Below, piece by piece: positions 3,775 through 31,800 of a stretch of 32,741 nt of DNA. The first letter of the stretch is position 1; each line of letters opens with the position of its first letter. A program made the position numbers and the translations under genes. The notes below the pieces were generated by a model that was not told the DNA's origin, searched no databases, and saw nothing but the letters and a program-made list of their open reading frames with translations. Source of the stretch: an uncultured Candidatus Saccharibacteria bacterium (GTDB lineage: Bacteria > Patescibacteriota > Minisyncoccia > Sungbacterales > HO2-52-23); the NCBI GenBank assembly GCA_964357005.1, contig CAYHJX010000002.1, forward strand, positions 1-32,741, read 5' to 3'.

Positions 3775-3803
3775 TTGCAAAACAACCATCTATCTGTTAT
3801 TAT
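3775..3803 (+). promoter_or_regulatory. Candidate sigma70-type promoter for the methyltransferase / GT-C operon
   Basis: TTGCAA (3775-3780), 17-nt spacer, TATTAT (3798-3803). It sits 30 nt upstream of ATG 3834, inside the 64-bp divergent intergenic region. Confidence 0.4.
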
Positions 3804-3833
3804 CTATAACACAACAAAAAAGAAACGAGTAAC

Positions 3834-7784: not shown

Positions 7785-8054
7785 AGTGCAAGCACTTCCT
7801 ATAACAAAACAGGGCAGGTGATAGTTTCGATGAATGAGGATTCTTAACCAAAAAATGTGCTCAAGAATATACCTACAAGCATAAGGGAAACTGCGAAAAG
7901 TTTTTTCGCGATACGCTTTTCCGCAAGAATGCCGCCGCTTAAAAGGACTGCCCACAAAACTATATATGTGACGGATCATAATAAAAAACATTTTATAATC
8001 CTGCATGAATTATAACAAACGTTCTCTAACTGAAATAAACCCTACCATCTTATT

Positions 8055-13329: not shown

Positions 13330-13336
13330 GCATTTC

Positions 13337-13861
13337 TCAAAAAAGCGGCCATGACCCATCCTTTTCGCTCGCCAAAGGATGCTCGATTGGCCATGTGATT
13401 TGGAATACCGGATCGTTCCATCGGACTCCTGACGCGCATTCGGGAACATAGAACTCGGACATCAAATATTGAACCTCGCAATCATCGGTAAGCGTCTGAA
13501 AACCATGCGCAAAACCCCTTGGAATATAAAACAGTTTTTTCTCATCACCTTTCAGTTCTACTGCATACCATTTTCCAAACGTCGGCGAGCTATCTCGTAA
13601 GTCAAGCGCAACATCATAAATCGCTCCTTTCACGCACTGGACAATTTTATCCTCCTCCTTCGGAGGCCGCTGAAAATGCATTCCCCGGATAGTTCCCTTT
13701 TTTGCAGTAAAGGAGATACTCGCCTGTACAATGTCAAATCGGATGCCGTGTTTCTCAAATTCGTTCTTGCAAAAAATACGCGTAAAATATCCCCGGGGAT
13801 CTCCGCGGAGCTCCGACTCTATCACAAATAATCCGTTAAGTGGTGTAGATAAAAAAATCAT
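13337..13861 (-). CDS. NDP-4-keto-6-deoxyhexose 3,5-epimerase (RmlC cupin family)
   Basis: 174-aa ORF. Motifs: GDPRGYFTRIFCKNEF, GTIRGMHFQ, KIVQCVKGAIYDVALDLR, FYIPRGFAHGFQTL, VRWNDP. These are the canonical RmlC blocks. Confidence 0.88.
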   Translation of the reverse strand: MIFLSTPLNGLFVIESELRGDPRGYFTRIFCKNEFEKHGIRFDIVQASISFTAKKGTIRGMHFQRPPKEEDKIVQCVKGAIYDVALDLRDSSPTFGKWYAVELKGDEKKLFYIPRGFAHGFQTLTDDCEVQYLMSEFYVPECASGVRWNDPVFQITWPIEHPLASEKDGSWPLF

Positions 13862-13866
13862 CGACG

Positions 13867-15081: not shown

Positions 15082-15086
15082 GGAAA

Positions 15087-16172: not shown

Positions 16173-16936
16173 GCTTCCCATACTGCCCACGGCCGCCCCT
16201 CACCCCACAACCGATTTAAATCCTCCATTTCCGTATAGGTATCCATTGACTTCCAAAATCCGGTATGCTCATACACGGAAAGCTCGTTATCCTGTATGAG
16301 CCGTGGAAACGCATTTTCCATGGGCCCGGCATCAAAATAGTCAAATGCTTTTTTGCTAAACACCATGAATCCGCCGTTTACGTAGTCATTCACCATTGGT
16401 TTTTGCTGGAATCCAGTCGCGCGCCTCGACGATCGATCAATCGTGATGATACCGTATTTCGAATACGGATGCACCGCAGTAAGCGTCGCAAGCGTACCCT
16501 GATTTCTATGAAATCGAACAAGATCCTGAATATCAATGTCACCGACCGCGTCGCCGTACGTCACCATAAATTCATCCTCGGTGATATATTTTTTCGTTTG
16601 CAAAAGTCGCTCGCCTGTGATGGTTTCAAGCCCTGTATCCGCGAACGTAATTTTAAAATCGTCGAAATTGCCCGTATTATGGAAATCAATTTCATTCCGC
16701 GCGTGATGAAGAGTAAAATCGTTTGAAAATGCCCGATGATTCAGGAAATATTCCTTTACCATGTTTCCTTTATACCCAAGAGCAAGCACAAAGCGACTAA
16801 ACCCATAATGGGAGTAAATCTTCATAATATGCCAGAGCATGGGTCGCCCCCCAATTTCCACCATTGGTTTTGGCTTGAATTCTGTTTCTTCCTTCATGCG
16901 GGTTCCTCGCCCGCCGCAGAGAATAATTGTCTTCAT
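16169..16936 (-). CDS. rfbF: Glucose-1-phosphate cytidylyltransferase
   Basis: 255-aa ORF. MKTIILCGGRGTRMKEETEFKPKPMVEIGGRPMLWHIMKIYSHYGFSRFVLALGYKG and the C-terminal HTGFWKSMDTYTEMEDLNRLW match my memory of RfbF/DdhA closely. Size is also typical. Confidence 0.92.
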   Translation of the reverse strand: MKTIILCGGRGTRMKEETEFKPKPMVEIGGRPMLWHIMKIYSHYGFSRFVLALGYKGNMVKEYFLNHRAFSNDFTLHHARNEIDFHNTGNFDDFKITFADTGLETITGERLLQTKKYITEDEFMVTYGDAVGDIDIQDLVRFHRNQGTLATLTAVHPYSKYGIITIDRSSRRATGFQQKPMVNDYVNGGFMVFSKKAFDYFDAGPMENAFPRLIQDNELSVYEHTGFWKSMDTYTEMEDLNRLWGEGRPWAVWEA

Positions 16937-17807: not shown

Positions 17808-18563
17808 TCAAGAAAAAAACTCATTAGGGTTTTCTTTCCACCTCTCCCAAAGTTTCTCTGCAATAAAGAAATCAATCGGAGCATCTATGTCAATCGCGCG
17901 CGCCTGCGGAATCACGTGATACTTCACCCGCTCGCCGGTAAGAGAGTTAAAATCTTTTATCACCCGTGTCCAACAAGCAATGACATTCGCCCGGAAATAT
18001 GCTTTCGCATAATTTTGACGGAGACCCGGAGTAACATCGCGACTGCTCTCGGTGATATAGGTGACAAGGCGCGCGCCACCCCCGCCGTCATCAATAATCT
18101 TCATGGCTTTATGGGGATGCTGGCGCGCTTCGGCAACAACAAGCGAAGAATGCGTATCTGTATCTTCAATAAGCCGCCCGATACACTGGTCAATATCGCC
18201 TGATGTCTGGAACGGAGTCGTCGGCACAAGGCGAAGAACGATGTCAGGCGCATACCCTTCATTTTTCTCAAGCCATCCGAGCGCATGGATAATATATTCA
18301 AGATCCGTCGAGTGGTCGCCGGCAATCTCTTTGGGGCGCAAAAAAGGAACCTCTGCTCCATACCGCCTCGCGATCGCGGCATATTTCTCGGAATCAGTCG
18401 AAACGATTACGCGATTCACGTACTGAGAATTTCGCGCGGCTTCAATAATCCACGCCATGAGGGGTTTGCCCCCAAGTTCTTTTATATTTTTATCAGGCAC
18501 CCCCCGTGAACCGGAACGCGCGCCAACAAGAGCCAAAATTTTAAGGTGGAGATTTCTATCCAT
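17808..18563 (-). CDS. Acylneuraminate (CMP-nonulosonate/ulosonate) cytidylyltransferase family, copy 1
   Basis: 251-aa ORF. Motifs: ALVGARSGSRGVPDKNIKELGGKPLMAWIIEAA..VIVSTDSEKYAAIARRYGAEVPFLRPKEIAGDHS, the CTP_transf_3 signature. There is no C-terminal esterase domain. Confidence 0.85.
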   Translation of the reverse strand: MDRNLHLKILALVGARSGSRGVPDKNIKELGGKPLMAWIIEAARNSQYVNRVIVSTDSEKYAAIARRYGAEVPFLRPKEIAGDHSTDLEYIIHALGWLEKNEGYAPDIVLRLVPTTPFQTSGDIDQCIGRLIEDTDTHSSLVVAEARQHPHKAMKIIDDGGGGARLVTYITESSRDVTPGLRQNYAKAYFRANVIACWTRVIKDFNSLTGERVKYHVIPQARAIDIDAPIDFFIAEKLWERWKENPNEFFS

Positions 18564-18614: not shown

Positions 18615-19967
18615 TCAAATAAGCGAGTTGAGTGCGGCAAATACGCGCTCACCTGTTTTTCCGTCAATCGGCCCGACGAGATCCGATACGATCTGGGATC
18701 TCCCCTCTTTATGAAGCGCAGGATCGTGAAGATATCCCGTAACGGCATAGATCAATTCTGATTCAGTTTTGACCCTCCATACGCCTCCGGTCTTCTGGAC
18801 ATAGAGATAATGGGTCGTATGGTCAAGCGCAAACGAAAGACGGTTATGAAGAGGAACTTTCAAGTCGTCGGCTCCATTAAATCCAACAAGGACAACCGGC
18901 CTATTGAAAATTGCGGACTCAAGGGACATTGTAGATCCTAAATTTATGTTTACATCGGTCCAGCGCACAAGATTTAAAAGAAGCTTCATGTCTTCTTTTT
19001 GATACGTAAAGTTTTTTCCAAAATCGAGTATAGGCACTCCTTCGATCTTCTTGTCCGAACCCAAGGGATCAGTCGGATGCGCGCGCACCGCGAGAAGCGC
19101 ATGAGAAAACAACCCGCGCTCGCTTGCGCGCATAAGCATTTCAAGATGATCGGTATATGTTTCCTCGGCGAGAACAACCGTGGGAAGGCCTCCCGTATAA
19201 TACACAATCCACTTCTTTGTGGGGTCAAGTCCGATCATGCGCGCGGTTTCTTCCTTTGTCATGTGCCATGAAGAATCCCGATAGTGGGAAAACTGCGCAA
19301 ATCCGACTACCCGTATGCGCTCAGGAGAAACATCGTTCCACATGATTGCTTCGCGGCGCATAATTTCGTTTTGTACCAAGAGGATGTTGGGAATGATCCG
19401 CAAGAGCAATTTTGTGCTGAAATTGTCCCAGCTCCGCACCATGCCGACCGATGGAATACCCCTCCGTTTTGCCTGCTTTAAAAATATAGTATCCTCTTCA
19501 ATCATGAGCGACGGGGCAAATACCACATCGGGCCGATACCGATCAAAGTAGATCGCCCACACGCGATCTTCAAAAAAGAATCGGTATTCGATGAATCGCA
19601 GTATTTCCCGCCACACCTTTAGATGACCGAGAAACCAACAAAGACGCCTTCCCATAAACCCGGAAAAAGAACCCCCGCTCCGGTACGTTGCGAGCTGGCG
19701 AATCCACATGGATTCAGTCGGAATACTTGCAAGCGCGATCATGCGAAATATTTTTTTTGCGACTTGCCGATCCATTCCGAAATCCGGAACCGGTTCAACA
19801 ATACAGCGCTCATTCGCAAAATCTCTCCGATGGGTTTCCAAACTGTCTGGAGATACAAATACCACGAGCCGCACCGCAGGATCGTTCTTCACCAAGGAAT
19901 AAAAATCGCCCCGCAGGAAGTTTTTTACCTCCACATTATGAGGCGCGTTCAGAAAAAATGTCTTCAT
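18615..19967 (-). CDS. Unassigned GT-B-like protein, paralogue A of a three-member family (TagF / NeuC / sialyltransferase-like motifs)
   Basis: I trimmed the start to ATG 19967 (MKTFFLNAPH...), 4 nt after the NeuB-like stop. It is collinear with 24063..25433 and 26150..27547. Shared blocks: FDRYRPDVVF, AKRRGIPSVGMVRSWDNFS, LLVQNE, VVGF, GLDPTKK, RAHP (His codon 19077-19079), LGSTMSLESA, GPIDGKTGERV. Confidence 0.6.
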   Translation of the reverse strand: MKTFFLNAPHNVEVKNFLRGDFYSLVKNDPAVRLVVFVSPDSLETHRRDFANERCIVEPVPDFGMDRQVAKKIFRMIALASIPTESMWIRQLATYRSGGSFSGFMGRRLCWFLGHLKVWREILRFIEYRFFFEDRVWAIYFDRYRPDVVFAPSLMIEEDTIFLKQAKRRGIPSVGMVRSWDNFSTKLLLRIIPNILLVQNEIMRREAIMWNDVSPERIRVVGFAQFSHYRDSSWHMTKEETARMIGLDPTKKWIVYYTGGLPTVVLAEETYTDHLEMLMRASERGLFSHALLAVRAHPTDPLGSDKKIEGVPILDFGKNFTYQKEDMKLLLNLVRWTDVNINLGSTMSLESAIFNRPVVLVGFNGADDLKVPLHNRLSFALDHTTHYLYVQKTGGVWRVKTESELIYAVTGYLHDPALHKEGRSQIVSDLVGPIDGKTGERVFAALNSLI

Positions 19968-19971
19968 GCCA

Positions 19972-21069
19972 CTAGCGAGGCCAGTTGAGAGCGTCTTCCG
20001 GCAGATGGGTATCTTCTTCAATGTCTGCCTGCGCGACGCGACCAATCACATCATAGATCAAACTTGGTTTGATACCGTGACCCGGTCCTTTTACCGCAAG
20101 AAGATCGGCCGTGATTACTGTCCCGATGGGAATTCTTGTCCGCGCCACAATGCTTTTTGCGAGTTTCTCGCGAAGCGGTTTCAGCTCCGAATAAAATATC
20201 TTCTCTCCCGATCCTTTAATCTTCTCAACCATCCGAATCGACGCCACCAGCTCTTTGAATTGATGTGGTTCAAGCGATGCCGCGTGGTCCGATCCTTTCA
20301 TTGTTTTATCGAGGGTCAAATGTCTCTCGACAATCTGGGCGCTTCGGGAGACCGCAACGAGCGTGGGCAAAAGTCCCATTTCATGTCCGGAATATCCGAC
20401 TGGAAGAGGAGTAAACCGTTCGCGAAGCGCGCCCATAAAGCGGACGTCAATCTTATCGTCCGGACACGGATATAATGAAACACAGTGAAAAATAATAAGG
20501 CGATTATTGTGCCGCAAAATCGCGCCAACAGCATCATCAATCTCGTCAAGCGTACTCATGCCGGTCGACAGAAGAACCGGCTTCCCTTTTTTCGAAACAT
20601 ACTCGAGAAGCGGAACATTAATGACATCAGCTGAAGGAATCTTATACGCATCAACACCCAACCGCTCCATGAAATCGGCGCTCTTCGGGTCCCACACGCT
20701 TGCAAAAAAAAGAATCCCTCGCTCTTCGGCATAGCGCTTCAATTCCCGGTAGTCCGACTCTGAAAATTCAAGCTTATTTCGATGCTCTCCGTACGTGGGA
20801 GCAAATGCGTTAGGAGAGGCATAGGGCTTTTCTAATCCCTCTTTCGTTAAAATTTCATCGGTCGTCCGCTTCTGGAATTTTACCGCATCCGCGCCAGCAT
20901 CCTTTGCTGCACCAATAAGCTGCTTCGCAATAGCGACATCCCCATTGTGATTGATGCCAACTTCCGCTATGACAAATACCGGCTCCCCGGGTCCGACGTA
21001 CTGCGTTCCTATTTTTACCTTTGGAGGAAGACCTCGAAGGATTGTGTGTATTTTTTCCCTGATATTCAT
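19972..21069 (-). CDS. NeuB-family nonulosonate synthase with SAF domain; resembles the sugar-phosphate-condensing (animal NANS / KDN-9-P synthase) type
   Basis: 365-aa ORF. Motifs: PVFVIAEVGINHNGDVAIAKQLIGAAKDAGADAVKFQKR, then EKPYASPNAFAPTYGEHRNKLEFSESDYRELKRYAEERGILFFAS..GKPVLLSTGMS..VGYSGHE..VERHLTLDKTMKGSDHAASLEP. As far as I recall, these blocks track human NANS nearly column for column. The C-terminal SAF-like part reads KSIVARTRIPIGTVIT. Confidence 0.88.
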   Translation of the reverse strand: MNIREKIHTILRGLPPKVKIGTQYVGPGEPVFVIAEVGINHNGDVAIAKQLIGAAKDAGADAVKFQKRTTDEILTKEGLEKPYASPNAFAPTYGEHRNKLEFSESDYRELKRYAEERGILFFASVWDPKSADFMERLGVDAYKIPSADVINVPLLEYVSKKGKPVLLSTGMSTLDEIDDAVGAILRHNNRLIIFHCVSLYPCPDDKIDVRFMGALRERFTPLPVGYSGHEMGLLPTLVAVSRSAQIVERHLTLDKTMKGSDHAASLEPHQFKELVASIRMVEKIKGSGEKIFYSELKPLREKLAKSIVARTRIPIGTVITADLLAVKGPGHGIKPSLIYDVIGRVAQADIEEDTHLPEDALNWPR

Positions 21070-21178
21070 GCTTTGGTTTTCTGCTCTTGTATAATAAAAC
21101 AGAGGGCGCAGAGAAAAGGTTTTCGGTGGCGCTTATTCAGCATGCATGTGCGCCTTCTCATGCATACGCTATACGCTC

Positions 21179-21763
21179 CTATTCATTTATTTTAGCCAAA
21201 AGCCGCAGCCCGTCCACAATGGTACGCGAATCATTCAATGCATTGTGCGGAGGGCGGACAAGCGCTTCCCCAAACGCGGTTACAATCGTGCCGCTTGTAT
21301 AGGAATACGCCGGAATTCCTCGCGCATCGAACAGAGCACGTATATCTTTGAATCGCATACGATCAAATGGAAATGGGATTTCACAAAGCCGGCAATTTTC
21401 CTCCAACACTTCGGCATCTGATCCGAACGAATAAAGATCATGCGTTCCTGCCCAGGAAAAAAATCGTGTTATCGCATCAGAAAAATCAACGCCTTCGTGA
21501 TCAATTGTATGCTGCGTAATACCGGTAAGACGAGAAAAATAATCTGAAAGTTCTGGATTTCTTTTTGGTTTTATAAAGACATCAAACGAGGCCTTTTCTG
21601 AATAGACCCGGGTATCAAGAAGTACTGCGCCGATCTGGACAATCTCACGGTATTCCCCGGGCCTCTTCCATTTCGCTTCCCGACTGCCTTCCCATGCAGT
21701 ATACTCCGTGTCAAAAACGACAATAGTCGGAGATGAAAAAAGGAGAGCGGGCGTCATTCTCAC
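21179..21763 (-). CDS. DEDDh 3'-5' exonuclease domain protein (KapD / ERI-1-like)
   Basis: 194-aa ORF. Exo I is VVFDTEYT (D-x-E). Then EIVQIGAV. The Exo II-like block is YSFGSDAEVLEENC. Exo III is HNALNDSRTI (H-x4-D). The start is either GTG 21763 or ATG 21757. Confidence 0.7.
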   Translation of the reverse strand: MRMTPALLFSSPTIVVFDTEYTAWEGSREAKWKRPGEYREIVQIGAVLLDTRVYSEKASFDVFIKPKRNPELSDYFSRLTGITQHTIDHEGVDFSDAITRFFSWAGTHDLYSFGSDAEVLEENCRLCEIPFPFDRMRFKDIRALFDARGIPAYSYTSGTIVTAFGEALVRPPHNALNDSRTIVDGLRLLAKINE

Positions 21764-21772
21764 ACAAGGGTA

Positions 21773-22339
21773 TTAGCGAAGCGAAAGAGTAAGAACATCA
21801 ACCCCTTTTGCTTCAAGAATCACATTTGCAAGATCACGAATTGCGCCGTCTCCTCCGTTTCGCTTTGCTATGAAGTGAACTCGCTTTTTTATGGTGTCTT
21901 CGGCCTGCTGTGGAGCCGCGGCAAGTCCGACTTTTCCGAGAATCTCATAGTCAGAAAGATCATCGCCCATATATGCACATTCGTCCCAGAGAATTCCATT
22001 CGCCTCAAGCCACGCGCCGAGAGAAACGACTTTATCTTTACCCTGCGGACCAGTAAAAATTCCCACCGGAGGCCAGCGGCCTTCACGAACCGACGGAAGC
22101 TCATTTAATTTCTTTCCTACTGCCTCGACAAAACCGGTTTTCTCGCCGCTCACAAACGCAATGAACACTCCCGCGTCTCGAAGAAGCGAAATTCCTTGTC
22201 CGTCAACGTGGCTCCTTTCTTTCAGCACCTCGCCCCGATCAGGATCCATAAACACCCTTCCGGTAAAAAGCACACCGTCGCCATCAAACGCAACTGCTCG
22301 AATTTTTTTTGCACGCCTAGTAAGCTCTACGCTTGCCAT
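21773..22339 (-). CDS. HAD-IIIA phosphatase of the KdsC type (ulosonate/nonulosonate-phosphate phosphatase)
   Basis: 188-aa ORF. Motifs: AVAFDGDGVLF (D-x-D nucleophile motif), HVDGQGISLLRDAGVFIAFVSGEK, GPQGKDKV, AYMGDDLSDYEILGKVGLAAAPQQAED. These are the four HAD motifs in KdsC order. It overlaps the upstream cytidylyltransferase gene by 13 nt. Confidence 0.85.
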   Translation of the reverse strand: MASVELTRRAKKIRAVAFDGDGVLFTGRVFMDPDRGEVLKERSHVDGQGISLLRDAGVFIAFVSGEKTGFVEAVGKKLNELPSVREGRWPPVGIFTGPQGKDKVVSLGAWLEANGILWDECAYMGDDLSDYEILGKVGLAAAPQQAEDTIKKRVHFIAKRNGGDGAIRDLANVILEAKGVDVLTLSLR

Positions 22340-23097
22340 GATTCTTTTCCTTTTTCTTGTAAAGATCGAATCACTTCTTCAGCCCATCGAAGCTCTTTTA
22401 TCGAATCAATGTCAATATCGCGCCACTCCTGAAATACCAAAGGTAAAATCCTAGTTCCACTCATGGAATTTCTTTTTACAATTACTTCGGGCCGGACAAC
22501 ATCAACATACCCTGAATGCCGATGCACTTTTGGAAGGAGCTGCCGAGGCATATTAAACGCCTCCGGGTACTTCTGAAATACGTCCGGATACACGCTTGTC
22601 AAAAGCGGTTTCAGAAATTTTTCTCCTTCATCCAGCATATACATTTTAAACGGAGTATGGAGCGGAGAGCACACCGAACGCACTGACGTCGCATCAGGAT
22701 TTTCCAAAAGCAGTTGAATTCCTGTATCGATATCCGCAGATGATTTAAGAGGCGTTGTCGGACGGAGATGAACCACCGCATCTGGCTCGTATCCTTCTTT
22801 CTCTTTAAGAAATGTAAGCGCATGCTGAAACACCGGCAAATCAGGAGTCGAGTCCTGGGCTAATTCTTTGGGGCGCATAAAAGGCACTTCCACGTCCAAT
22901 TTCCGCGCTATACTGGCAATCTTTTCATTGTCGGTTGAAATAATCAAGCGCGAAATAAGCCGCGAATGCTGTGCGGCCATAACCGTGTAGTATAGAAGTG
23001 GCTTTCCCGCGCAAGGATAAATATTTTTCTCCGGAATCGATTTCGAATCCCCCCGCGCAAGAATTACCCCAAGGACTTCTTTCCTTTTCCCCGCCAT
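22327..23097 (-). CDS. Acylneuraminate cytidylyltransferase family, copy 2
   Basis: 256-aa ORF. Motifs: GVILARGDSKSIPEKNIYPCAGKPLLYYTVMAA..LIISTDNEKIASIARKLDVEVPFMRPKELAQDST. It is collinear with copy 1 at 17808..18563 but clearly diverged from it. Confidence 0.85.
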   Translation of the reverse strand: MAGKRKEVLGVILARGDSKSIPEKNIYPCAGKPLLYYTVMAAQHSRLISRLIISTDNEKIASIARKLDVEVPFMRPKELAQDSTPDLPVFQHALTFLKEKEGYEPDAVVHLRPTTPLKSSADIDTGIQLLLENPDATSVRSVCSPLHTPFKMYMLDEGEKFLKPLLTSVYPDVFQKYPEAFNMPRQLLPKVHRHSGYVDVVRPEVIVKRNSMSGTRILPLVFQEWRDIDIDSIKELRWAEEVIRSLQEKGKESWQA

Positions 23098-23144
23098 ATA
23101 TACCTATAACGTGGAAAATAAAAAGAAAGTCAATAATCGAGAGA

Positions 23145-23170
23145 CCAAAAAAGCGAGCCAAGGGCCCGCT
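23145..23170 (-). terminator. Candidate intrinsic terminator directly after the 264-aa membrane protein gene
   Basis: The minus-strand transcript reads AGCGGGCC-CTT-GGCTCGCT: an 8-bp GC-rich stem with 1 mismatch (plus-strand arms 23152-23159 and 23163-23170). TTTTTGG follows. The hairpin begins at the base after the TAG stop (23171-23173). Confidence 0.45.
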
Positions 23171-23965
23171 CTAGATTACACGTAAAACCTTAAACTGTTC
23201 GTAATACTCATACATGCCCCAGTACCAAAGATAGATCGCGTTTCCGACAAGCACATTGAATCCGAGACCGGCGTTACGCAGCCACCATTCGAAACTTCCA
23301 AATCCGCCGTGAAGCATAATGCTTGCCCAAAACCATATAACAAGTGCGTTTGAAAAAATACCCTTAAGGAAAAAAGATCGAGGATAGTGCACGCCCTTCG
23401 TACGGATGGTTTCCAGGTCGAGAAGAATCCAGCGAAATACAATCACAGTAGCCACAATCGCGCTTATCACCTCAAACCCCCAACCAGGGCCAAATAGCGA
23501 ATAATCCAGTTGGCGCAAAAATCCGATAAGAAGCCCAAGGAAAACCGCACACGCTGAAAAAAGAATTCGTGCGATTACTGCACTCGCTGTGAGTTTCCAG
23601 TATGACCTCAATCCCTCGCCGATCTGCCATCCGATAACCGAGAGAAGCAGGAGTTGCATCCAAAACCAACTCTGGCTTACGCCGCCGATCATCCATGCGC
23701 CAACATTAATAGAAAGAAGCAACGCCCAATGGATGAAATCGTATATGCGAGCTTCGATATTTACCTTCTCGCCATCACGAATGGCAAGTAACAAATCGAA
23801 CTGTCCTGAAAGAATCACGAGAATACCAACCGGAGGAATCCAAAACGCAATCGCATGAAAAGTAACGAAACTCCATATCTTCTCAACAGAAACGATGACG
23901 TATATACAAAGGACAATAAGCCCACTCCAGTATGCAGAGCTGAGCACGCGTTTTACTGTTTGCAC
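23171..23965 (-). CDS. Hypothetical polytopic membrane protein (about 8 helices), no family recognised
   Basis: 264-aa ORF with a GTG start at 23965, preceded by GGGAGGGG. It is Trp-rich and hydrophobic (…WFWMQLLLLSVIGWQIG…, …ALVIWFWASIMLHGGFGSFEWW…). I could not find a diagnostic motif. Confidence 0.6.
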   Translation of the reverse strand: MQTVKRVLSSAYWSGLIVLCIYVIVSVEKIWSFVTFHAIAFWIPPVGILVILSGQFDLLLAIRDGEKVNIEARIYDFIHWALLLSINVGAWMIGGVSQSWFWMQLLLLSVIGWQIGEGLRSYWKLTASAVIARILFSACAVFLGLLIGFLRQLDYSLFGPGWGFEVISAIVATVIVFRWILLDLETIRTKGVHYPRSFFLKGIFSNALVIWFWASIMLHGGFGSFEWWLRNAGLGFNVLVGNAIYLWYWGMYEYYEQFKVLRVI

Positions 23966-23994
23966 GAGGCCCCTCCCGGAAACGAACTGAAAGC

Positions 23995-24023
23995 ATCATA
24001 TAATAAAACTATCTAGCCGTCAA
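23995..24023 (-). promoter_or_regulatory. Candidate internal sigma70-type promoter for the membrane protein gene
   Basis: On the minus strand: TTGACG (24023-24018), 17-nt spacer, TATGAT (24000-23995). It lies in the 97-bp gap, one of the largest within the gene train, about 30 nt upstream of GTG 23965. Confidence 0.4.
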
Positions 24024-24062
24024 TGGACAACAAAAATACAACCGGATCGCCATTCGAATATC

Positions 24063-25433
24063 TCATTTTTGAATAAGCGTATGTACTGCATCGGCAATAC
24101 GCTTCCCCGAATCTCCTTCGTAAGGAGCAAGAAATTCTTTTATGAGGCACGTGCGCCCGTCTGCATCCTTCCGGGGGTTCTCCAAATATGCGTTGATTGC
24201 TTCCGCAAGTGCGCCTTCGCTGTCTGCGGCCCGAACACCGCCGGTTGCCATCATGGCTTCATAGTGCGTGTAGTGATGCCGGAACCGCCGCGCCGATATC
24301 CAATAGTTCACGCGTGTTTTTTCAAATGCGGCTGATAGTGCCGGCTTGCCGAGCGCAACCGCATCAAGCGCCATGGTGGATCCGGACGTAATCACCATCT
24401 CGCTATGAACAATTGAATTTACCAGATGCTTCATTTCCTCTTCCCCCATCTCCCAACTATCCACCTGGGAGGAAAGATATACTGCATTGCGATCAGGTAT
24501 GACGTGGCGGAATGACTTCATCCGCTCGAGCGGGCTTTGAAACGCGGGATGCGCGCGAAATACCATAACAAGATCCTGCGGAATTTTTTTTGATTCGACA
24601 AGCGCCTCAAACACATCCGCAATCTCGCCCTCTTTTGGGAATAAAAAGTCGCCCATAGCGCCAAACAAAATCATTCGTTTTTTCGGATCAATGCCGAGTT
24701 TTTGCAAAAATGCATCACGCGGCAAAATCCATTCGTTCCTGAAATACCAATCATTTTGCGGAAATCCGACCACTTCAAACATCTCCGGCATCAAAAAATG
24801 ATATGTCATTCCCATTCGCTTTAAATACTCATTTTGCAAAAGCATTCGGTCGGGCACTACGCGCAAAAACCCGTGCGACGTGAAATTATCCCATCCGCGG
24901 AGCATCGCAATTGTAGGAATTTTGCGACGCTTGGCCTCGCGAAGCATCGCGACATCAATTTCCGGATGAATTGCAACGGTTGAAAACAAAAGATCGGGCC
25001 CATAGCGATCAAAAAGCGCCCGCACTGTCGGAAGCTGCTTTCGCATAAGTTCTATCCGGCGAACAAGCACTTGAATAGTTTTTGATCTGCCGAATGCGTG
25101 CCACAAGAATCGCTTGAACATAAGCGCGAGAAAACTTCCGCCGTCATGTCTCTGGCGCATCTGATTGAAGGTTGTTGTTCCGGTTTGGAATGCGTTTCGC
25201 GAAATAAATGCAAGCGCTTTCTCGAGAAATCCCGGCGCGACATACGGAAGTTCTTCAACCGTTATATCCTTCCCGAAAAATTCTTTTGCATACTGCTCCT
25301 TTTTCAAAGATGCGGTAACCAGTACAATGCGGAAATTTCTTTCCGCATTGATGTAATTCCAAAAAGATCCGCGAAGCACGTTTCGTGCGGCAGACGCCTC
25401 TGGAACAGTAATAAAGATTGTTTTCTTCGGCAC
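24063..25433 (-). CDS. Unassigned GT-B-like protein, paralogue B
   Basis: 456-aa ORF with a GTG start 4 nt after the upstream stop. Blocks: FDRYGPDLLF, AKRRKIPTIAMLRGWDNFTS, LLQNEYL, VVGFPQNDWY, GIDPKKRMILFGAMG, FRAHP (His codon 24549-24551), ITSGSTMALDAVALGKP, YLENPRKDADGR, APYEGDSGKRI. Confidence 0.6.
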   Translation of the reverse strand: MPKKTIFITVPEASAARNVLRGSFWNYINAERNFRIVLVTASLKKEQYAKEFFGKDITVEELPYVAPGFLEKALAFISRNAFQTGTTTFNQMRQRHDGGSFLALMFKRFLWHAFGRSKTIQVLVRRIELMRKQLPTVRALFDRYGPDLLFSTVAIHPEIDVAMLREAKRRKIPTIAMLRGWDNFTSHGFLRVVPDRMLLQNEYLKRMGMTYHFLMPEMFEVVGFPQNDWYFRNEWILPRDAFLQKLGIDPKKRMILFGAMGDFLFPKEGEIADVFEALVESKKIPQDLVMVFRAHPAFQSPLERMKSFRHVIPDRNAVYLSSQVDSWEMGEEEMKHLVNSIVHSEMVITSGSTMALDAVALGKPALSAAFEKTRVNYWISARRFRHHYTHYEAMMATGGVRAADSEGALAEAINAYLENPRKDADGRTCLIKEFLAPYEGDSGKRIADAVHTLIQK

Positions 25434-25437
25434 AAAG

Positions 25438-26121
25438 TCAGCTCTTCTTGATTACAAAATATTTTCTTGCTTTTTCGTCATAATCAATGCGGTACGGCGT
25501 CCCTCGAAAGAATTCATCAATTGCTTTTGTGGCTCCGGGCCATCGGGGACTTTTGTATTCGTCGAACAAGATTACGCCCCCGTTGGCAACTTGTGGAAAG
25601 AATTTCTTAAGCACCGCGCGATACGACTCATAGAGATCCACATCAATATGCAACAGTGCAATGGGGCCGCCATCGTACGAATCAACCGTATTCTCAAAAA
25701 ATCCCTTAACGAGCCTCACGTTCTTTGTGAGAAATACGGGGGAAATCCTCGCGGTCATCAAAATCTGCTTAATATCGTCAATTGATGTCCCTGACCATTC
25801 TCCTTTCTTTGGATTACGGACACTATCGTCTTCTTTTGCTGGTTCGGGAAAACCCTCAAACGAATCAAAACCCCACACCATGCGATTCCGCCCCTCCATT
25901 TCAGCAAACGAAGAAAGGAATAAAAATGTTGTCCCTCTCCCTACTCCGCATTCAACAATAGCCCCATCGACAGCTCGGATATTCTCATACATCTTTCCCA
26001 TATACAGAATCTGCGTGATTCGCCGTACCGTAAGGGGAATTTCCTTTTCGGAACTTTTTTTCACATCATATCCAAATGCACCAATAACTTTCTTGATTAT
26101 CTTTTTTAGCATCATACGCAC
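25438..26121 (-). CDS. TylF / macrocin-O-methyltransferase family SAM-dependent (sugar) O-methyltransferase
   Basis: 227-aa ORF. Motifs: GAIVECGVGRGTTFLFLSS, VWGFDSFEGFPEP, LLHIDVDLYESYRAVLKKFFPQVANGGVILFDEY. These are the metal-binding D-x-D and SAM motifs typical of the TylF/NovP class. Confidence 0.8.
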   Translation of the reverse strand: MRMMLKKIIKKVIGAFGYDVKKSSEKEIPLTVRRITQILYMGKMYENIRAVDGAIVECGVGRGTTFLFLSSFAEMEGRNRMVWGFDSFEGFPEPAKEDDSVRNPKKGEWSGTSIDDIKQILMTARISPVFLTKNVRLVKGFFENTVDSYDGGPIALLHIDVDLYESYRAVLKKFFPQVANGGVILFDEYKSPRWPGATKAIDEFFRGTPYRIDYDEKARKYFVIKKS

Positions 26122-26149
26122 ATCGTATTGTTACATGGAAACCGCATCA

Positions 26150-27547
26150 TTACACCAATGAAAGAATAAAATGTGTCAGCCGCTCGGACGATTTTCCATC
26201 AAAGGGCTCGATAAACCGCTCTCGGATGCAATCCCGCCCCCCGAGATCCTTTTGGGGATTTTCCAAGTAGGTACGTATTGCATCCGCTAACTCACGCTCG
26301 GAATGCGGGCGCCGCATGCCGCCGCAGTTTCCCACTTCTTCCCAGTCAAAACACATGCCTCCATGAACTTTCGCTAAATAACGCCCGTAGGGAAACTTTT
26401 TTCTCCCTTCAAACGCAAACGCTATGACCGGCTTTCCAAACGCAATAGCATCGAGAATAATCGTTCCCGATGTGGTAAGCAACAACTCGCTATGATACAA
26501 AGAATTTATTTGGTGAGAAATATCAGACAAATCTTCTTTTGGTTGTCCGGCGCGCGGGATCTTGCTTGCGCGCACTTCATCCGCAACCACATGGCGCAAT
26601 GGCTTCAGACGGCTCAACGAAAAATTGTAATACGGGTGGTTACGAAAAATAAATACGAGATCGGATGGCAACACGCCCTTCTCGACCATATCATCGAGCA
26701 TCTCGGCAAGAGAAACCTCCAACTCATGCAAAATTCCGCCTACCGCGCCAAACAGTATAACCCGTTTCGAAGAATCTATTCCAAATCGTTTTAAAAATTC
26801 ATCACGGGGCGCCAATAGCTCTTTATCCGCATACCAATCATAGTGCGGAAAACCAGTGATAACAACTCTGTCCGCGGGGAAAAAATTATATTGCACGGCC
26901 ATTTCCTTAACATACATGCTGGGAACAACCATATAATCCGGATGCATCAACATGAAACCAATGTTGCTTAACGCGTCCCACCCGCGAATACCCGCAATCG
27001 TCTTAATTCTTCTGCGTTTAGCTTCACAAAGCACAGGTACGTCATATGACGTACTCGCAATATTGGTACTTAAAACAAGTACGGGATTATATCTATCAAA
27101 AATTTCTATAATATACTTATAAGCAGGAATATGCGACACTCGCTCGCGCACAATTCTCTGAATTATCCTCGCAAGGGGCCGCCAAGTTCCAAACGTATAG
27201 GCAATGATCCTGTGCAACACTATACGATAGAGCGGCACACGGGAAATGTGACGCTCTACAAGGCGATGCCATGCGCGACTCAACTTTTGATGAAACGCCG
27301 AGCGGGAAAGAGAAATTAACATCTCAAAATATTTGGAGGTTTTCACTCGGGGAATAGCGACTATGTCTGCACCTGCGCCCCCGAATTCCGATCGGTATCC
27401 GGCTTCTTCCGCTTTCGAGACAATCAAAACGACTTTCACATCCGGGCGTTTTGCAAGCTCTGCCACAAAACCGCTCCGCAAAAAATATCGCGGTATCATC
27501 GGTCCTCCTGCAGTAGAAATAAAAATAACCTTTTTTTGTGTATCCAT
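26150..27547 (-). CDS. Unassigned GT-B-like protein, paralogue C
   Basis: 465-aa ORF with ATG 4 nt after the ABC gene stop. Blocks: FDRYNPVLVLS, AKRRRIKTIAGIRGWDALS, ITGFPHYDWY, GIDSSKRVILFGAVG, FRNHP (His codon 26636-26638), TTSGTIILDAIAFGKP, YLENPQKDLGGR, EPFDGKSSERL. Confidence 0.6.
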   Translation of the reverse strand: MDTQKKVIFISTAGGPMIPRYFLRSGFVAELAKRPDVKVVLIVSKAEEAGYRSEFGGAGADIVAIPRVKTSKYFEMLISLSRSAFHQKLSRAWHRLVERHISRVPLYRIVLHRIIAYTFGTWRPLARIIQRIVRERVSHIPAYKYIIEIFDRYNPVLVLSTNIASTSYDVPVLCEAKRRRIKTIAGIRGWDALSNIGFMLMHPDYMVVPSMYVKEMAVQYNFFPADRVVITGFPHYDWYADKELLAPRDEFLKRFGIDSSKRVILFGAVGGILHELEVSLAEMLDDMVEKGVLPSDLVFIFRNHPYYNFSLSRLKPLRHVVADEVRASKIPRAGQPKEDLSDISHQINSLYHSELLLTTSGTIILDAIAFGKPVIAFAFEGRKKFPYGRYLAKVHGGMCFDWEEVGNCGGMRRPHSERELADAIRTYLENPQKDLGGRDCIRERFIEPFDGKSSERLTHFILSLV

Positions 27548-27551
27548 TTCT

Positions 27552-29354
27552 TTACACTGATAATGCGGATCTTTTCACATGATATGCTTTATAAAAATTT
27601 GATTGTGGATCCTCAAGGAGCTTTCGCGGATTACCTTCTTCTATAATCCTGCCGCCGTGAAGCACGTATACCCTGTCAGCATCCAGTACCGTTGATAAAC
27701 GGTGCGCAATCATAATGACCGTTACTTTCCCATGAAGCTGCTGAAGCGCTTTCTGAATGAGTGATTCTGATTCATTATCCAAAGCGCTCGTTGCCTCATC
27801 AAGGACAAGAATCTCGGGGTGATGCGCAAGCTCCCGTGCAAGCACAATCCGTTGTCGCTGTCCCGCCGAAAGCATAATACCACGATCTCCCACCATAGTA
27901 TCAAGACCATCGGGAAGCGACTGAACATATTCGTAGATATGCGCTTCTTTTACGGCATTCTCGATATCGGTTTCTCCAATCCCTGTACGATAAAAAAGAA
28001 TATTGTTTCTGATAGTGTCATTCAAGAGAAAAATATCCTGCGGTACATATCCAAGATGCATCCGCCATTCCCGTACCCCTATGGAAGAAATATCTTTGCC
28101 GTCAATCATGATTTCTCCCTTCTCGGGAGTAAAAAGACGAAGCAAAAGATCAACTAATGATGTCTTTCCTACGCCTGAAGGGCCCACCACTGCAATCGTA
28201 TCTCCCTTATGAACGGTTATCTGAATTCCTGAAAGCACCGGTGGTCCACTGTGATAAGAAAAAAATAAATCTCGGAATTCAAGCTCATTTTGAAACGAGA
28301 AGGGTTCGTCTCCAAGATCATGTTCTCGATATTTTCTCAATGAATCCATAAGATAAATAATATCTGCGGTATGGGGCAGCAAATCAGAGATGGTATGGAG
28401 CGATCGCTGTATTGACTCCACGTCAACAAAAATTTTATGTATCAAATAAATAGTTGCGATAAGTGCTGCAAGATTAAATCCGGGAGTTCTATAGGACAAC
28501 ACGAAAATGACCGTGATGAAAACAAAACTTATCGGCTGGATGAATGCAGCGCTTGACGCCCGGAGCATGTAGCTTCTTATATTGAGCCGGCGCAGTATCG
28601 CAAGCAATTCCGCGGTCTTTTCCCGGACCCCATTTTCAACTGCTGCAGCCTTTACCACTTTCATGCCGATGACATGCTCACTTAAGTGTTGTGAGGCGTC
28701 TTTTTCAACCTGGTTCACGCGGTACGCCGCCGCTTTTGCAATTTTTCCAAGCGGGAGAAGCAAAATAAGGAGGAGTATTCCCCCGCCCATAGTGATAAGC
28801 GTGATATTCGGCGAAATATTCACTGAAACCAAAAAATACATACATACCGTCGTAAGGGCTAAAATAGCGTGTCCAAACGACATGAAAAGCGCGGCGCCCT
28901 GATCCACACCTCGGATAAAAGCGCTCTGGATATATCCGAGTTTCTGCCGCAATAAAAATCGCCATTCTGCTACGAGCGCCAACGAAAAAAGCTCCTCCCG
29001 CATATGGCGCTTATAGTCAGTAACAATTTTAGTGCGCACGTAGCTAAAAAGAAGAATGGCACATGCTTTAAAAATAAAAAGTGCTACCATAAAACTTAAA
29101 AGTGATGTCACGCTCAATGGAAACGGAAGGTATCCGTTGATAGCGATGATTAATCGAGACTAGAAATTATCGCTTGCGTGGACGCTTCCTCCAGCGATGA
29201 GGGAAAACAAAGGGATCATCGCGCTAATGCTCACACTTTCGAAAAGTCCGCCTAAAAACCCCAATACCACCATAACTGCAATCCTCCCCTTATATCTCCC
29301 GAAGGCGCGATAAAATATATAGAAATTTTTTGACGCTTTAATCCGCTCAATCAT
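27552..29354 (-). pseudogene. MsbA-type ABC exporter (fused TMD-NBD) interrupted by a single in-frame TAG at 29160-29162
   Basis: Track ORFs 29160..29375 (TM1: GRIAVMVVLGFLGGLFESVSISAMIPLF) and 27552..29117 (TM2-6 plus NBD: Walker A GPSGVGKTS, signature LSAGQRQR, Walker B ILVLDEATSALD, H-loop IAHRLS) are in the same frame. Only TAG separates them, followed by 14 sense codons (SRLIIAINGYLPFP). The joined length of about 600 aa is typical. The likely start is ATG 29354. Confidence 0.7.
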
Positions 29355-30711
29355 GATTTTTGAGAAAATGATCAAGAAAACGAAAAAATCTTTCGGCGTT
29401 TTTTCCGTCTAATGCTGAATATTTTTCTTCGATGAATTTTCGCAGATTTGAATTTTTCTTCCACCTCTGTTGTTCTCCGGGAATCTTCGTACCATAGTCG
29501 AGATACTTATGTAACATACCAACAAGCATCTCTCTGTTATAAGCAATCTCGTGAAAAGTACTTGTTGCGGGACTTAACAACGCTGCCTCTTCCATGCGGC
29601 GTCCCGAACTCAAACCAAGATCGCTCGCCTCCGCCCACCACGGCACCACAACAGCAACATCTGCAATAAGCGCATCGAGGCAAGACGTTGAATTAAACCC
29701 TACAAGCACCCGGGGACGCTTTGCGAGAAAATACTCCATTGGTCCGGTTACTACCTGAAAATCAGGAAATGACCTTTTGATAGTAACTATCTCGCGTACG
29801 TCTCGACATTTTATCGTGATATGCGTTCGCAGAATTTCATCCCTATAGAGCGCTTGAAGGACCTCGCGCCAAAGAGTTGCTGCGCCGTACGAAGGATCTT
29901 GAAATGCTGCAACAAGAATAAATGGCTCTTCTTGATTTTGACCCGCCTCGGGCGACTCGGAAATTTCAACAAGACGGTCAACGCGTGGACAGCCAGTTAC
30001 GAACGATTGCGATGCGGTTACAGCACGAGCAGCAATAAAAACATCCTTTGCGTACTCGTTATAAAATAATACCGCATCGCCATCATAGCGAAACTGCGCT
30101 TTTGTGTATATTTCCACTGTTTCCTCTTTATAGAATTTCGAGTAGATGATTGATTCCTTATAGAGCGAAACGAACACTCCGCCGCACTTTTGTATGGCAA
30201 AAACCCATGGATATTCCTGAGCATAATCAATGAGTCCGGTCAAAATAACGCGGACACGAATACCTGTTTGCTTCTCGATAAAATACATTATGCCTTCATA
30301 TATGCGTACCATTCGCTCTGTAAATTCGCGATAGTGATTCCGATGGGCGTAAAATCCCGTCTGAACAGCAAATCCAGCAGGCCACACGGCTTTCGTAAGA
30401 AGTGCACGGACGAAACTGGGGTACGACAGTATGGTATACGAAAGGTGATGCGCTTTTTGGTATTGCCGCAAAGCATCTTTGTCATCGTTAAAAATACGCC
30501 GATCCATTGCCAAAAGAACGACCCCAGAAGACGGACGCGCGCACTCTTCACGATTATTAGAAATAACAAGAAAGGCAATGAGTCGAGAGATTGCGGAATC
30601 AAGATGCAACCACCATAAAATCCGCACTCCGTACACCAAAAGGGTCTGTTTTGCAACGGGACGCAACAGACCCTTGAAAAAAGAAATGACTCTTGTAGAT
30701 ATGCGTTTCAC
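29347..30711 (-). CDS. Hypothetical protein, distant relative of paralogues A-C (GT-B-like) lacking the H-P motif
   Basis: 454-aa ORF with a GTG start at 30711. Its blocks occur in the same order as in A-C: VILTGLIDYAQEYPWVFAIQKCGGVFVSLYKE corresponds to ..AKRR.IP...R.WDN. DAVLFYNEYAKDVF...FVTGCPRVDRL corresponds to LLQNE...VVGFPQND. VLVGFNSTSCLDALIADVAVVV corresponds to ITSGSTMALDAVALGKP. Confidence 0.45.
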   Translation of the reverse strand: MKRISTRVISFFKGLLRPVAKQTLLVYGVRILWWLHLDSAISRLIAFLVISNNREECARPSSGVVLLAMDRRIFNDDKDALRQYQKAHHLSYTILSYPSFVRALLTKAVWPAGFAVQTGFYAHRNHYREFTERMVRIYEGIMYFIEKQTGIRVRVILTGLIDYAQEYPWVFAIQKCGGVFVSLYKESIIYSKFYKEETVEIYTKAQFRYDGDAVLFYNEYAKDVFIAARAVTASQSFVTGCPRVDRLVEISESPEAGQNQEEPFILVAAFQDPSYGAATLWREVLQALYRDEILRTHITIKCRDVREIVTIKRSFPDFQVVTGPMEYFLAKRPRVLVGFNSTSCLDALIADVAVVVPWWAEASDLGLSSGRRMEEAALLSPATSTFHEIAYNREMLVGMLHKYLDYGTKIPGEQQRWKKNSNLRKFIEEKYSALDGKNAERFFRFLDHFLKNHD

Positions 30712-30726: not shown

Positions 30727-31800
30727 CTAGACGATTAAATCCCATGCAAGGGGCGTGCCGCGTTCAATATCTTTTGCAGCGGCTTTCCCGATAATTTCTT
30801 CATAGTGCTTGGTATGAAGGCCGTTTGCGGGACGAATGGAGCGCGCGTTTTCTTTCGTGAATACCTCTCCTTTTTTCATATCCTTCACGACAAACAGTGA
30901 TCTTCTAAAACGCGTATTGTATCGTTCCTGTTCAGTCGCCGGTCCGTAGTGCGGCGCGCCGAGCATTGTTTCGTGCTTTCGTATGGTAGCAACCATTTCC
31001 TGTAACTCCTGTGGTTCGATGGAAAACTTCGCGTCAGGACCGCCGTCGCTCCTTCGCAGAATAAAATGCTTTTCAATAATTGCGGCGCCGTGCGCCGCCG
31101 CAATAATAGGAATCTCAATGCCGCCATTATTATCAGAAAACCCCGCCACCACGCCGAATCGTTCCTCAATATCCCGCATTGTTTTTAAATGCATAACCGA
31201 AGGATCGGGGTCTCCGGTGTAACCTGTCACACAATGCAAAATCGCAATTTCTTTGGCGCCGTTTTCACGCAGTGTTTTCAGCGCAAGTTCAATATCTTCA
31301 AGCGATGCGTATCCGATAGACATAATAACCGGCTTCCCGGTCCGTGCGATTTTTCTTAAAAGGGTTACGTCATTCACTTCGTATGACGCAACTTTGTAGC
31401 AAGGGACATCCATTGATTCAAGCAGATCAACTGCCGTCTCATCAAAGGGTGTTGAAAATAAAAAAATCCCTATTTCGTCGGCAATTTTTTTTAGTTTTGG
31501 CTGCCAATCCCACGGTGTATATGCTGTTTGATACAGCTCGTATAGCGTCTTCCCTTTCCAATCGTCAGGATTATCCTTCCCGCCAACCAAAAACCATTCT
31601 TTATTGGAATCAATCGTTATTGTATCCGGCGTATATGTTTGCAGTTTAACTGCGTCTGCCCCTGCTTCTTTTGCGGCCTTAATCATTGCGACCGCCTCAT
31701 CATATTTTTGATGGTGATTTGCAGATACCTCTGCCACAATAAAGCAAGGTTTCCCTTGTCCAATCTCGCGCCCGCCAATGTGAATCAGGGATGTTTTCAT
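30727..31800 (-). CDS. pseI: NeuB-family nonulosonate synthase, pseudaminic acid synthase (PseI)-like
   Basis: 357-aa ORF. Motifs: KPCFIVAEVSANHHQKYDEAVAMIKAAKEAGADAVKLQTYTPDTITIDS..LYELYQTAYTPWDW..FSTPFDETAVDLLE..YKVASYEVND..GFSDNN..IIEKHFIL..DAKFSIEP..RSLFVVKDMKKGEVFTKENARSIRPANGLH. It follows my recollection of Campylobacter PseI block by block, including the ...QTYTPD... and ...RS[IV]RP..GL motifs. Confidence 0.82.
   Translation of the reverse strand: MKTSLIHIGGREIGQGKPCFIVAEVSANHHQKYDEAVAMIKAAKEAGADAVKLQTYTPDTITIDSNKEWFLVGGKDNPDDWKGKTLYELYQTAYTPWDWQPKLKKIADEIGIFLFSTPFDETAVDLLESMDVPCYKVASYEVNDVTLLRKIARTGKPVIMSIGYASLEDIELALKTLRENGAKEIAILHCVTGYTGDPDPSVMHLKTMRDIEERFGVVAGFSDNNGGIEIPIIAAAHGAAIIEKHFILRRSDGGPDAKFSIEPQELQEMVATIRKHETMLGAPHYGPATEQERYNTRFRRSLFVVKDMKKGEVFTKENARSIRPANGLHTKHYEEIIGKAAAKDIERGTPLAWDLIV

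Follow-up and report, generated by a model that had tools for sequence, protein, structure and literature searches.

Our analyses show that the 32,741-nucleotide stretch of DNA studied here (the window), which is one entire 32.7-kb contig (CAYHJX010000002.1) of an uncultured Candidatus Saccharibacteria bacterium, carries three paralogous genes, A, B and C, whose products are probably glycosyltransferases of the GT-B fold that use nonulosonic acids activated with cytidine monophosphate (CMP) as donors and that differ in their acceptors. This interpretation is based on a nucleotide-binding domain in common with enzymes that release CMP, on the fact that their sole curated relative is a knock-out-validated Tannerella family of transferases for pseudaminic acid (Pse) or legionaminic acid (Leg), and on gene linkage to the synthesis of CMP-nonulosonates, not to that of alditols activated with cytidine diphosphate (CDP). 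The most likely role of these proteins is the attachment of nonulosonic acids to a surface glycan rather than teichoic acid synthesis.

A, B and C are encoded on the reverse strand at 18615..19967 (450 residues), 24063..25433 (456 residues) and 26150..27547 (465 residues), respectively, and they are homologous over their full length, with significant end-to-end BLASTP alignments for each pair (A/B, 28% identity, E 2e-58; B/C, 34%, E 1e-87; A/C, 23%, E 3e-27). An earlier reading of this DNA, made without database searches and hereafter called the sequence-only reading, had described three collinear full-length paralogues at these positions, which we confirm. Several of the blocks that it had aligned are indeed found in all three proteins, namely FDRY.P (residues 141, 141 and 150), AKRR.I(P/K), G(I/L)D..K+ and the C-terminal P.(D/E)G....R(I/V/L). 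Other blocks proposed as common have a narrower distribution: LLxQNE is exact in A only (LLQNE in B, VVPSMY in C), V.GFPxxDWY occurs in B only (ITGFPHYDWY in C, VVGFAQFSHY in A), SG(S/T)..LDA...GKP is exact in C and nearly so in B whereas A has GSTMSLESAIFNRP, and YLENP.KD..GR matches B and C but not A. The His codons of the H-P motif (19077-19079, 24549-24551 and 26636-26638; residues 297, 295 and 304) do lie within R-A-H-P in A (19074-19085), R-A-H-P in B (24546-24557) and R-N-H-P in C (26633-26644). The motif, which had been called invariant, is so in these three proteins but not in the wider family described below. A further motif, W-D, which the sequence-only reading had not listed, is common to A (W180-D181, 19425-19430), B (W181-D182, 24888-24893) and C (W190-D191, 26975-26980).

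The AlphaFold2 model of B, built with a 59-sequence alignment, is a two-Rossmann GT-B structure of high confidence (predicted local distance difference test (pLDDT) score 96.2, predicted template modelling score 0.93), with a five-helix insertion at residues 69-144. The net charge of the helical insertion, taken as residues about 63-146, is +7, +10 and +13 in A, B and C (family mean +8.4), that of the remainder of the protein being -1.3. Foldseek retrieved 327 matches to B in the PDB at E<=1e-3, and the 50 listed are all GT-B proteins, including the glycosyltransferases MshA and OleD, which bears out the GT-B fold that had been anticipated. The sialyltransferase and ulosonic-acid transferase families GT38/GT52/GT80 and GT99/GT107/GT118/GT140 are absent from these top 50 matches, and a Pfam scan of A and its three homologues in the window (B, C and the divergent D, discussed below) gave nothing at E<=1 for GT38/GT42/GT52/GT80, GT99/GT107/GT118/GT140 or KpsC/KpsS (PF05159), profile-profile comparison with these families not having been run.

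At the sequence level, the only Pfam family matched by A, B or C is PF04464, which contains TagF and TarL (gathering threshold 22.1 bits). C scores 44.7 bits and B a marginal 22.7 bits, A has no match, and the matches span just profile positions ~134-366 of 367. In a profile search of PDB sequences, TarL (8va1) ranked top (E 2.6e-5), its GxPxxD, HP and S-S/T..KP motifs coinciding with those of the family. A phmmer search of PDB sequences with C gave nothing but chance matches to RIO2 kinase. Alignment with hhalign to a comparison profile built from seven plasmid-borne TarL/TarF/TagF-family proteins was strong (98.5%, E 3.2e-15) and paired residues 194-456 of B with 329-562 of TarL, that is, the C-terminal half only. 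The resemblance to TagF/TagB that the sequence-only reading had noticed is, hence, real for that half. A forced hhalign extension into the N-terminal domain (-mact 0.01) had near-zero confidence, so that the family W-D and the W-H of TagF can be equated only tentatively.

The closest curated family is NCBIfam NF046086 (BFO_1060 family glycosyltransferase), which is matched by 56 of 59 family members (best E 6e-18). Since A, B, C and D score 35.0, 32.4, 34.7 and 24.2 bits against a cut-off of 200, they are not members of it. In Tannerella, knock-out of its founders, Tanf_01245 and TFUB4_00887, deprives the O-glycan of Pse or Leg (PMC5420450). The window has the same kind of gene context, with the pseudaminic acid synthase PseI, a second NeuB-family synthase and two PF02348 cytidylyltransferase genes. 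In agreement with the earlier view, the proteins belong to no characterised family; to call them unassigned was a slight overstatement, as some homologues already carry the public annotation “CDP-glycerol glycerophosphotransferase family protein”, the proteins themselves bearing no name in public sources. The alignments with the C-terminal half of TarL and with both domains of the epimerase WecB (see below) place the family between PF04464 and PF02350 (Epimerase_2) in the GT-B clan.

The family is large. A profile search covering 1.84 billion representative sequences retrieved 3,061 clusters (50% identity) at E<=1e-30 and 6,635 at E<=1e-10, and a search with B retrieved 136 homologues. From 116 confirmed stretches (one genome per species) we fetched 80 and added four exact look-ups, which yielded 84 related loci (L001-L084). 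Their hosts are almost all members of the Candidate Phyla Radiation (CPR, or Patescibacteria), including Sung-, Harrison-, Yanofsky-, Campbell-, Zambryski-, Azam-, Giovannoni-, Komeili- and Uhrbacteria as well as Paceibacterota, along with a few metagenome-assembled genomes labelled Bacteriovorax, Acidimicrobiales or Gammaproteobacteria. One copy is present in 41 loci, two in 19, three in 23 and four in one, and family genes directly adjoin each other in 22 loci. There are also natural two-copy fusions (P0121-P0125, single proteins of 897-944 residues) and one fusion of a family copy with a Methyltransf_23 domain (P0192), the methyltransferase being the sole informative additional domain among the fusion proteins. 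The complete Sungiibacteriota genome CP066690 (L001) carries A-, B- and C-type copies together with a haloacid dehalogenase (HAD) family gene, an ATP-binding cassette (ABC) exporter and cytidylyltransferases, which implies that the triplication is old and not a local event; the nearest relatives of A are the A-type copies of L001, L002 and L041. Among the fetched loci, the closest relative of C, tied with B-type copies, is the gene at 11371-12771 of L001, in which W-T replaces W-D and R-P-Q-P replaces R-x-H-P; judging from these replacements, this copy may be catalytically inactive or use another mechanism. The B-type copy of CP066690 carries R-P-Y-P. Outside the CPR, a plasmid of Rhizobium sp. 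WL3 (NZ_CP042825.1, 632582-633976; L093 8599-9993) encodes WP_147885260.1, a family member over its full length (hhalign 100%, E 9e-43) that is annotated as “hypothetical protein”. Its gene immediately follows neuC and a gene for an acylneuraminate cytidylyltransferase, and a NeuB-family gene is close by. Two more Rhizobium hypothetical proteins were considered and were not confidently related.

Conservation was counted over an alignment of 131 members from the 84 loci, with residues numbered as in B. W181 is present in all 131 members and D182 in 129, and further highly conserved positions are R125, P146, G223, P225, D228, R293, P296, S/T352-353, P364, H390, R427, G440 and R445. By contrast, residue 295, at the His position of the HP motif, is clade-specific (H in 47 members, P in 45, Q in 18, Y in 11 and T in 7), the family-wide pattern at this site being R-x-x-P. 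We therefore reject this His, found in A, B and C, as a universal catalytic acid. Loci with several copies usually contain mixed residue-295 classes.

The gene neighbourhood of the family points to nonulosonate metabolism. Homologues of NeuB or of PF02348-type cytidylyltransferases occur in 57 of the 84 loci, 40 of which have both; among the 38 loci that reach 18 kb, 31 have one or the other. In 33 loci a family gene lies no more than 200 bp from one of them. A TagD- or TarI/IspD-type cytidylyltransferase was found in none of the 84 loci, and the glucose-1-phosphate cytidylyltransferase RfbF in seven. Two loci are minimal modules, with the gene orders family-NeuA-NeuB-NeuC (L004) and family-NeuA-HAD-HisPhos-NeuB (L003), in which a transferase is the only missing step. 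Linkage also differs among residue-295 classes: His-type members, among them A, B and C, directly adjoin NeuB or cytidylyltransferase genes in 23 of 44 cases versus 9 of 84 for all others (Fisher p 7e-7 without a correction for phylogeny), with 8 of 45 for the P type and 0 of 36 for the Q, Y and T types, while the GT2 genes of the same loci do so once in 22. The CMP-donor part of the sequence-only reading is in this way strongly backed by the related loci.

On these grounds we can propose a mechanism. A, B and C would be cytoplasmic enzymes whose donors are CMP-activated nonulosonic acids, the CMP moiety being bound by the C-terminal domain. The end of the R-x-H-P strand, the S/T-S/T loop and the C-terminal D-G-x-x-x-x-R helix appear to sit where TagF has its conserved motifs, and R293, H295 and S352/T353 would be ligands of the CMP phosphate. 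The catalytic base is an Asp in bacterial sialyltransferases and a His in TagF; here, the invariant Asp of W-D, at the end of the fifth strand of the N-terminal domain, may take this role and act on the acceptor hydroxyl. The N-terminal domain, which would bind the acceptor, differs from that of TagF/TarL, and its basic helical insertion could anchor the enzyme to the membrane or to a lipid-linked acceptor of negative charge. Each paralogue would have its own acceptor or linkage, and together they would act serially on one lipid-linked glycan, which might then be O-methylated and flipped or exported by the adjacent ABC exporter.

Several observations weigh against the assignment of A, B and C as CMP-nonulosonate transferases. 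Their role is a prediction from gene context, sequences and models, and the function of the BFO_1060 family would be carried over a long distance (24-35 bits versus a 200-bit cut-off). The choice of D182 as base relies on conservation and strand topology, and can only be putative. The top Foldseek ranks of B are occupied by 2-epimerases of UDP-GlcNAc (UDP, uridine diphosphate), WecB/MnaA/NeuC, with E ~5e-14 and template modelling (TM) scores of 0.52-0.58. In 27 of the 84 loci, many of them incomplete, neither NeuB nor a cytidylyltransferase is within reach, and the window contains four transferase candidates versus two obvious nonulosonate pathways. Finally, in Bacillus subtilis the TagB-like protein SpsB is encoded beside a CMP-Leg pathway and yet deletion of spsB keeps Leg on the spores (PMC7439481), a sign that guilt by association of this kind can fail.

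Some of these observations would suit a different, though unlikely, explanation in which the proteins are ordinary GT-B enzymes acting on nucleoside diphosphate sugars (UDP-sugars, deoxythymidine diphosphate sugars or CDP-hexoses) and merely co-localised with nonulosonate genes. A-C might, for example, build the acceptor chain, the nonulosonate being added by D or by an enzyme encoded outside the window. The generic fold, the UDP-sugar enzymes MshA and OleD among the top 50 Foldseek matches, the excess of paralogues over nonulosonate pathways and the SpsB precedent are all compatible with it, and it applies particularly to the non-His subfamilies, given the lack of NeuB/cytidylyltransferase adjacency in the Q, Y and T types. 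However, the only relatives at the sequence level (TagF/TarL and BFO_1060) release CMP, the minimal four-gene modules lack any other transferase, and the frequent adjacency of His-type members to NeuB or cytidylyltransferase genes is not shared by GT2 genes. We consider it still less probable that the family consists of TagF/TagB-type phosphotransferases, moving alditol phosphate or sugar phosphate from a CDP donor (CDP-glycerol, CDP-ribitol or the CDP-6-deoxyhexose of the genes at 12460-16936) into a phosphodiester-linked, teichoic-acid-like polymer for ABC export. PF04464 and the TarL/TarF profile do match, a CDP-glucose pathway lies within the same operon-like cluster, the tandem two-copy fusions recall multi-domain TagF-like capsule polymerases and, CPR bacteria being monoderms, teichoic-acid-like polymers are plausible in them. 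Nevertheless, the homology is confined to the C-terminal half, A does not match PF04464 and the C-domain His is restricted to a minority of members. Moreover, the first 200 residues of the 131 members contain no mainly-His column (the richest, column 12, has His in 47), whereas the His of the W-H-G motif is invariant in our seven-member TagF sample. The sampled genuine TagF-family genes with neighbours shown each adjoin TarI/IspD/TagD, cytidylyltransferases of a kind missing from the 84 loci, where RfbF is also infrequent. The phosphodiester and CDP-donor part of the sequence-only reading is thus not supported.

That reading had also entertained the alternative that one or more copies are nucleotide-sugar hydrolases or 2-epimerases of the NeuC/LegG/PseG type. 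The window, whose end lies shortly beyond pseI, shows no NeuC or PseG. The structural matches to WecB/MnaA/NeuC favour this idea, and so does hhalign to Escherichia coli WecB (92%, E 6e-7), which covers both domains including the DG....RI helix; the resemblance to WecB/NeuC noted earlier is therefore genuine. The catalytic residues of WecB (E. coli numbering) are D95, E117, E131 and H213. In this alignment of moderate confidence (92%), the three acids fall on non-acidic residues (D95 on a variable residue, E117 on R169 and E131 on N183), and H213 falls on H295. A, B and C do not match PF02350 at E<=1, so that, of the profiles that the sequence-only reading had suggested, PF04464 gave partial matches to C and B while PF02350 and PF05159 gave none; the NeuC model TIGR03568 is touched by 2 of 59 relatives (E ~3e-4). 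A separate WecB/NeuC-like gene is present in 27 related loci, including L004 and L041, whose layout resembles that of the window, and the Rhizobium locus; two to four divergent copies in a locus (three to four in a cluster) are ill-suited to a single pathway step, and the Pse genes upstream of pseI probably lie past the end of the contig. This makes a hydrolase or epimerase function very improbable, and transfer of nonulosonic acids from CMP remains the reading that we favour.

A more ambitious scenario, possible although rather doubtful as a whole, is that the CPR bacteria expanded a TagF-derived family in which a two-His active site was rebuilt around W-D, and whose copies work as an assembly line making oligo- or poly-nonulosonate glycans. 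This line would consist of the diverged copies, two to four in a locus, and of the fused two-copy proteins, the glycan made here would contain methylated Pse and a second nonulosonate, and the P, Q, T and Y subfamilies would be mechanistically distinct transferases or non-catalytic partners.

The window contains, in addition, a very divergent fourth GT-B homologue, which the sequence-only reading had missed. D (29347..30711, reverse strand, 454 residues), directly downstream of pseI, has a hydrophobic helical N-terminal region and neither the W-D nor the H-P motif. Its similarity to A, B and C is not detectable by BLASTP, but the profile of its family (A4) aligns with that of the A/B/C family (A1) over 296 columns (hhalign 98.3%, E 2.3e-14). 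The D family is rare, with 13 homologues in a search of 5.8 billion proteins. The AlphaFold2 model of D has a GT-B fold (pLDDT 85), and TagF (3l7k) has the highest TM-score (0.52) among its 50 listed Foldseek matches; D also weakly matches TIGR04396, “surface carbohydrate biosynthesis protein”.

A, B, C and D lie in a surface-glycan gene cluster that encodes at least two pathways for nonulosonates. From 9.3 kb to 32.5 kb, nearly all genes are on the reverse strand, with intergenic gaps of a few bases, and this is the strand of all the genes given next as far as the open reading frame of 264 residues. The pseudaminic acid synthase PseI (30727..31800) scores 432 bits with TIGR03586 (cut-off 340.25) and has PF03102 NeuB and SAF domains. 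A second NeuB-family nonulosonate synthase (19972..21069; PF03102, 268.6 bits) reaches 329 bits with TIGR03569, below the cut-off of 399.65, and is of the NeuB/Leg/Kdn (ketodeoxynononic acid) type, its subtype not being assignable. The two CMP-nonulosonate synthetase-like cytidylyltransferases are number 1 at 17808..18563, directly downstream of A (PF02348, 81.5 bits; PseF model, 134.5 bits, sub-cut-off), and number 2 at 22327..23097 (PF02348, 61 bits; PseF, 121 bits, sub-cut-off). There is also a HAD phosphatase similar to KdsC or to Kdn-9-phosphate phosphatase (21773..22339; NF007019, 89 bits, and NF058599, 80 bits, both sub-cut-off). Between C and B lies a TylF-type O-methyltransferase (25438..26121; PF05711, 97.7 bits), with homologues in ten related loci. 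An ABC exporter of the MsbA/PglK/HepA type (27552..29375; PF00664 and PF00005) scores 303, 284 and 251 bits with HepA, MsbA and PglK, respectively, every one below its cut-off. It appears to be split into a 71-residue open reading frame at 29160-29375, a fragment with the first transmembrane helix, and a main frame of 521 residues at 27552-29117, out of frame with each other; comparison with the 597-residue orthologue of L001 indicates a frameshift or an assembly error. The orthologous exporter arrangement is found in L001, L002, L041 and L049, and, with just these four of 84 loci, we rejected the exporter as a general partner of the family.

The genes of the KdsC-like phosphatase and of the NeuB-family synthase are separated by that of a KapD-like DEDD 3'-5' exonuclease of the RNase_T family (21179-21763), without an obvious part in glycan synthesis, and between B and cytidylyltransferase 2 lies an apparently hydrophobic open reading frame of 264 residues (23171-23965), with no match in Pfam or NCBIfam, whose product could be a glycan polymerase, ligase or acyltransferase. 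At lower coordinates than A-D are a CDP-glucose-derived C-methyl-6-deoxyhexose pathway for CDP-6-deoxyhexose synthesis (12460-16936), GT2 enzymes, an ArnC-like GT2 with a GT-C protein (PMT_2) and an aminotransferase. The CDP-glucose, C-methyltransferase, 3,5-epimerase and reductase genes are flanked by a fused transketolase-like thiamine diphosphate enzyme of 708 residues (5880-8006) and an aldehyde dehydrogenase (9322-10797), both on the reverse strand, an arrangement that may indicate branched-chain deoxysugar synthesis. A second sugar module (624-5905) codes for an oxidoreductase (GFO/IDH/MocA), an ArnC-like polyprenyl-phosphate GT2, an aminotransferase (DegT), a methyltransferase and a GT-C of the PMT_2 type, and is reminiscent of an Arn-like pathway in which a lipid-linked aminosugar modifies an extracytoplasmic acceptor. 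The open reading frame at 8155-9264, tried as a further family member, proved unrelated.

So far, few transferases have been described for Pse, Leg and similar nonulosonic acids of bacteria (PMC5420450), and our literature searches turned up no paper in which nonulosonic acid is linked with both a transferase and TagF, or with the CPR. If our interpretation is correct, several thousand sequence clusters become many new candidates for this activity, and a likely systematic mis-annotation (as “hypothetical” or “CDP-glycerol glycerophosphotransferase”) is corrected. The surfaces of CPR bacteria mediate attachment to their hosts and their chemistry is almost unknown; multi-copy clusters of nonulosonate transferases would predict acidic, sialic-acid-like surface glycans across the CPR, and a poly-nonulosonate coat on ultrasmall episymbionts would be one not previously described. 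The apparent change from His to Asp in the N-terminal domain, upon a conserved CMP-binding C-terminal domain, would represent a phosphotransferase scaffold turned glycosyltransferase. Since Rhizobium sp. WL3 has a family member and can be cultivated, the prediction can be put to the test there.

In comparison with known systems, the family has in common with TagF, TarL, TarF and TagB (PF04464; PDB 3L7I-M, 8VA1) a homologous C-terminal Rossmann domain with the linker G-x-P-x-x-D, a strand that ends in (K/R)-x-H-P, the loop S-S/T...(K/R)-P and, at the C terminus, the helix D-G-x-(S/A)-(S/G)-x-R-(V/I). The C-domain His by which TagF contacts the donor phosphate (H584, “MH”) has a counterpart in A, B and C, aligned with the KMHP of TarL, but in only 47 of the 131 family members. 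TagF and TarL release CMP and the same is expected of the family; we propose that this is why the nucleotide-binding domain is common to both. By contrast, where TagF has the catalytic His of W-H-G (TagF H444, TarL H300), the family loop reads S-W-D-N-x-T-x-(K/R)-G, with K/R-G five residues past W-D, and its genomic partners are NeuB and PF02348 genes instead of TagD/TarI/TarJ. The proposed chemistry is that of the bacterial sialyltransferases GT52/GT80, which use a CMP-ulosonate donor, an Asp base and the His of an HP motif, whereas GT99, GT107, GT118 and GT140 belong to the retaining type, with an Asp that serves as nucleophile and a fold that is modified (PMC12887879). With WecB, the family has in common its invariant W, which aligns with W129, and the C-terminal DG....RI helix.

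Closer in biology are two groups of TagB-like proteins. The BFO_1060 family of Tannerella forsythia resembles ours in its GT-B/TagB-like nature, the HP motif, the lack of transmembrane segments and the position of its genes beside those for CMP-nonulosonate synthesis. It differs in length (365 model positions versus ~455 residues), lacks the basic helical insertion and is reported to have D/E-D/E-G where our family has W-D. Our family is, in addition, almost confined to the CPR and commonly found in two to four copies per locus. The SpsB-like proteins of Bacillales (“spore coat polysaccharide”, with a TagB domain) are encoded next to Pse/Leg genes, and SpsB had been proposed as a nonulosonate transferase; one of them, WP_201225787.1 of Peribacillus, is a distant homologue (hhalign 96.6%, E 6e-10) that has Q-H-G instead of W-D, this Q-H-G falling five residues after W-D, over the K/R-G of the family. 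With no full match to TagF, BFO_1060 or Epimerase_2 and with its own W-D signature, the family is distinct from all three. TagB-like nonulosonate transferases were already known, if thinly documented, and what is new is a large, CPR-centred family built around W-D.

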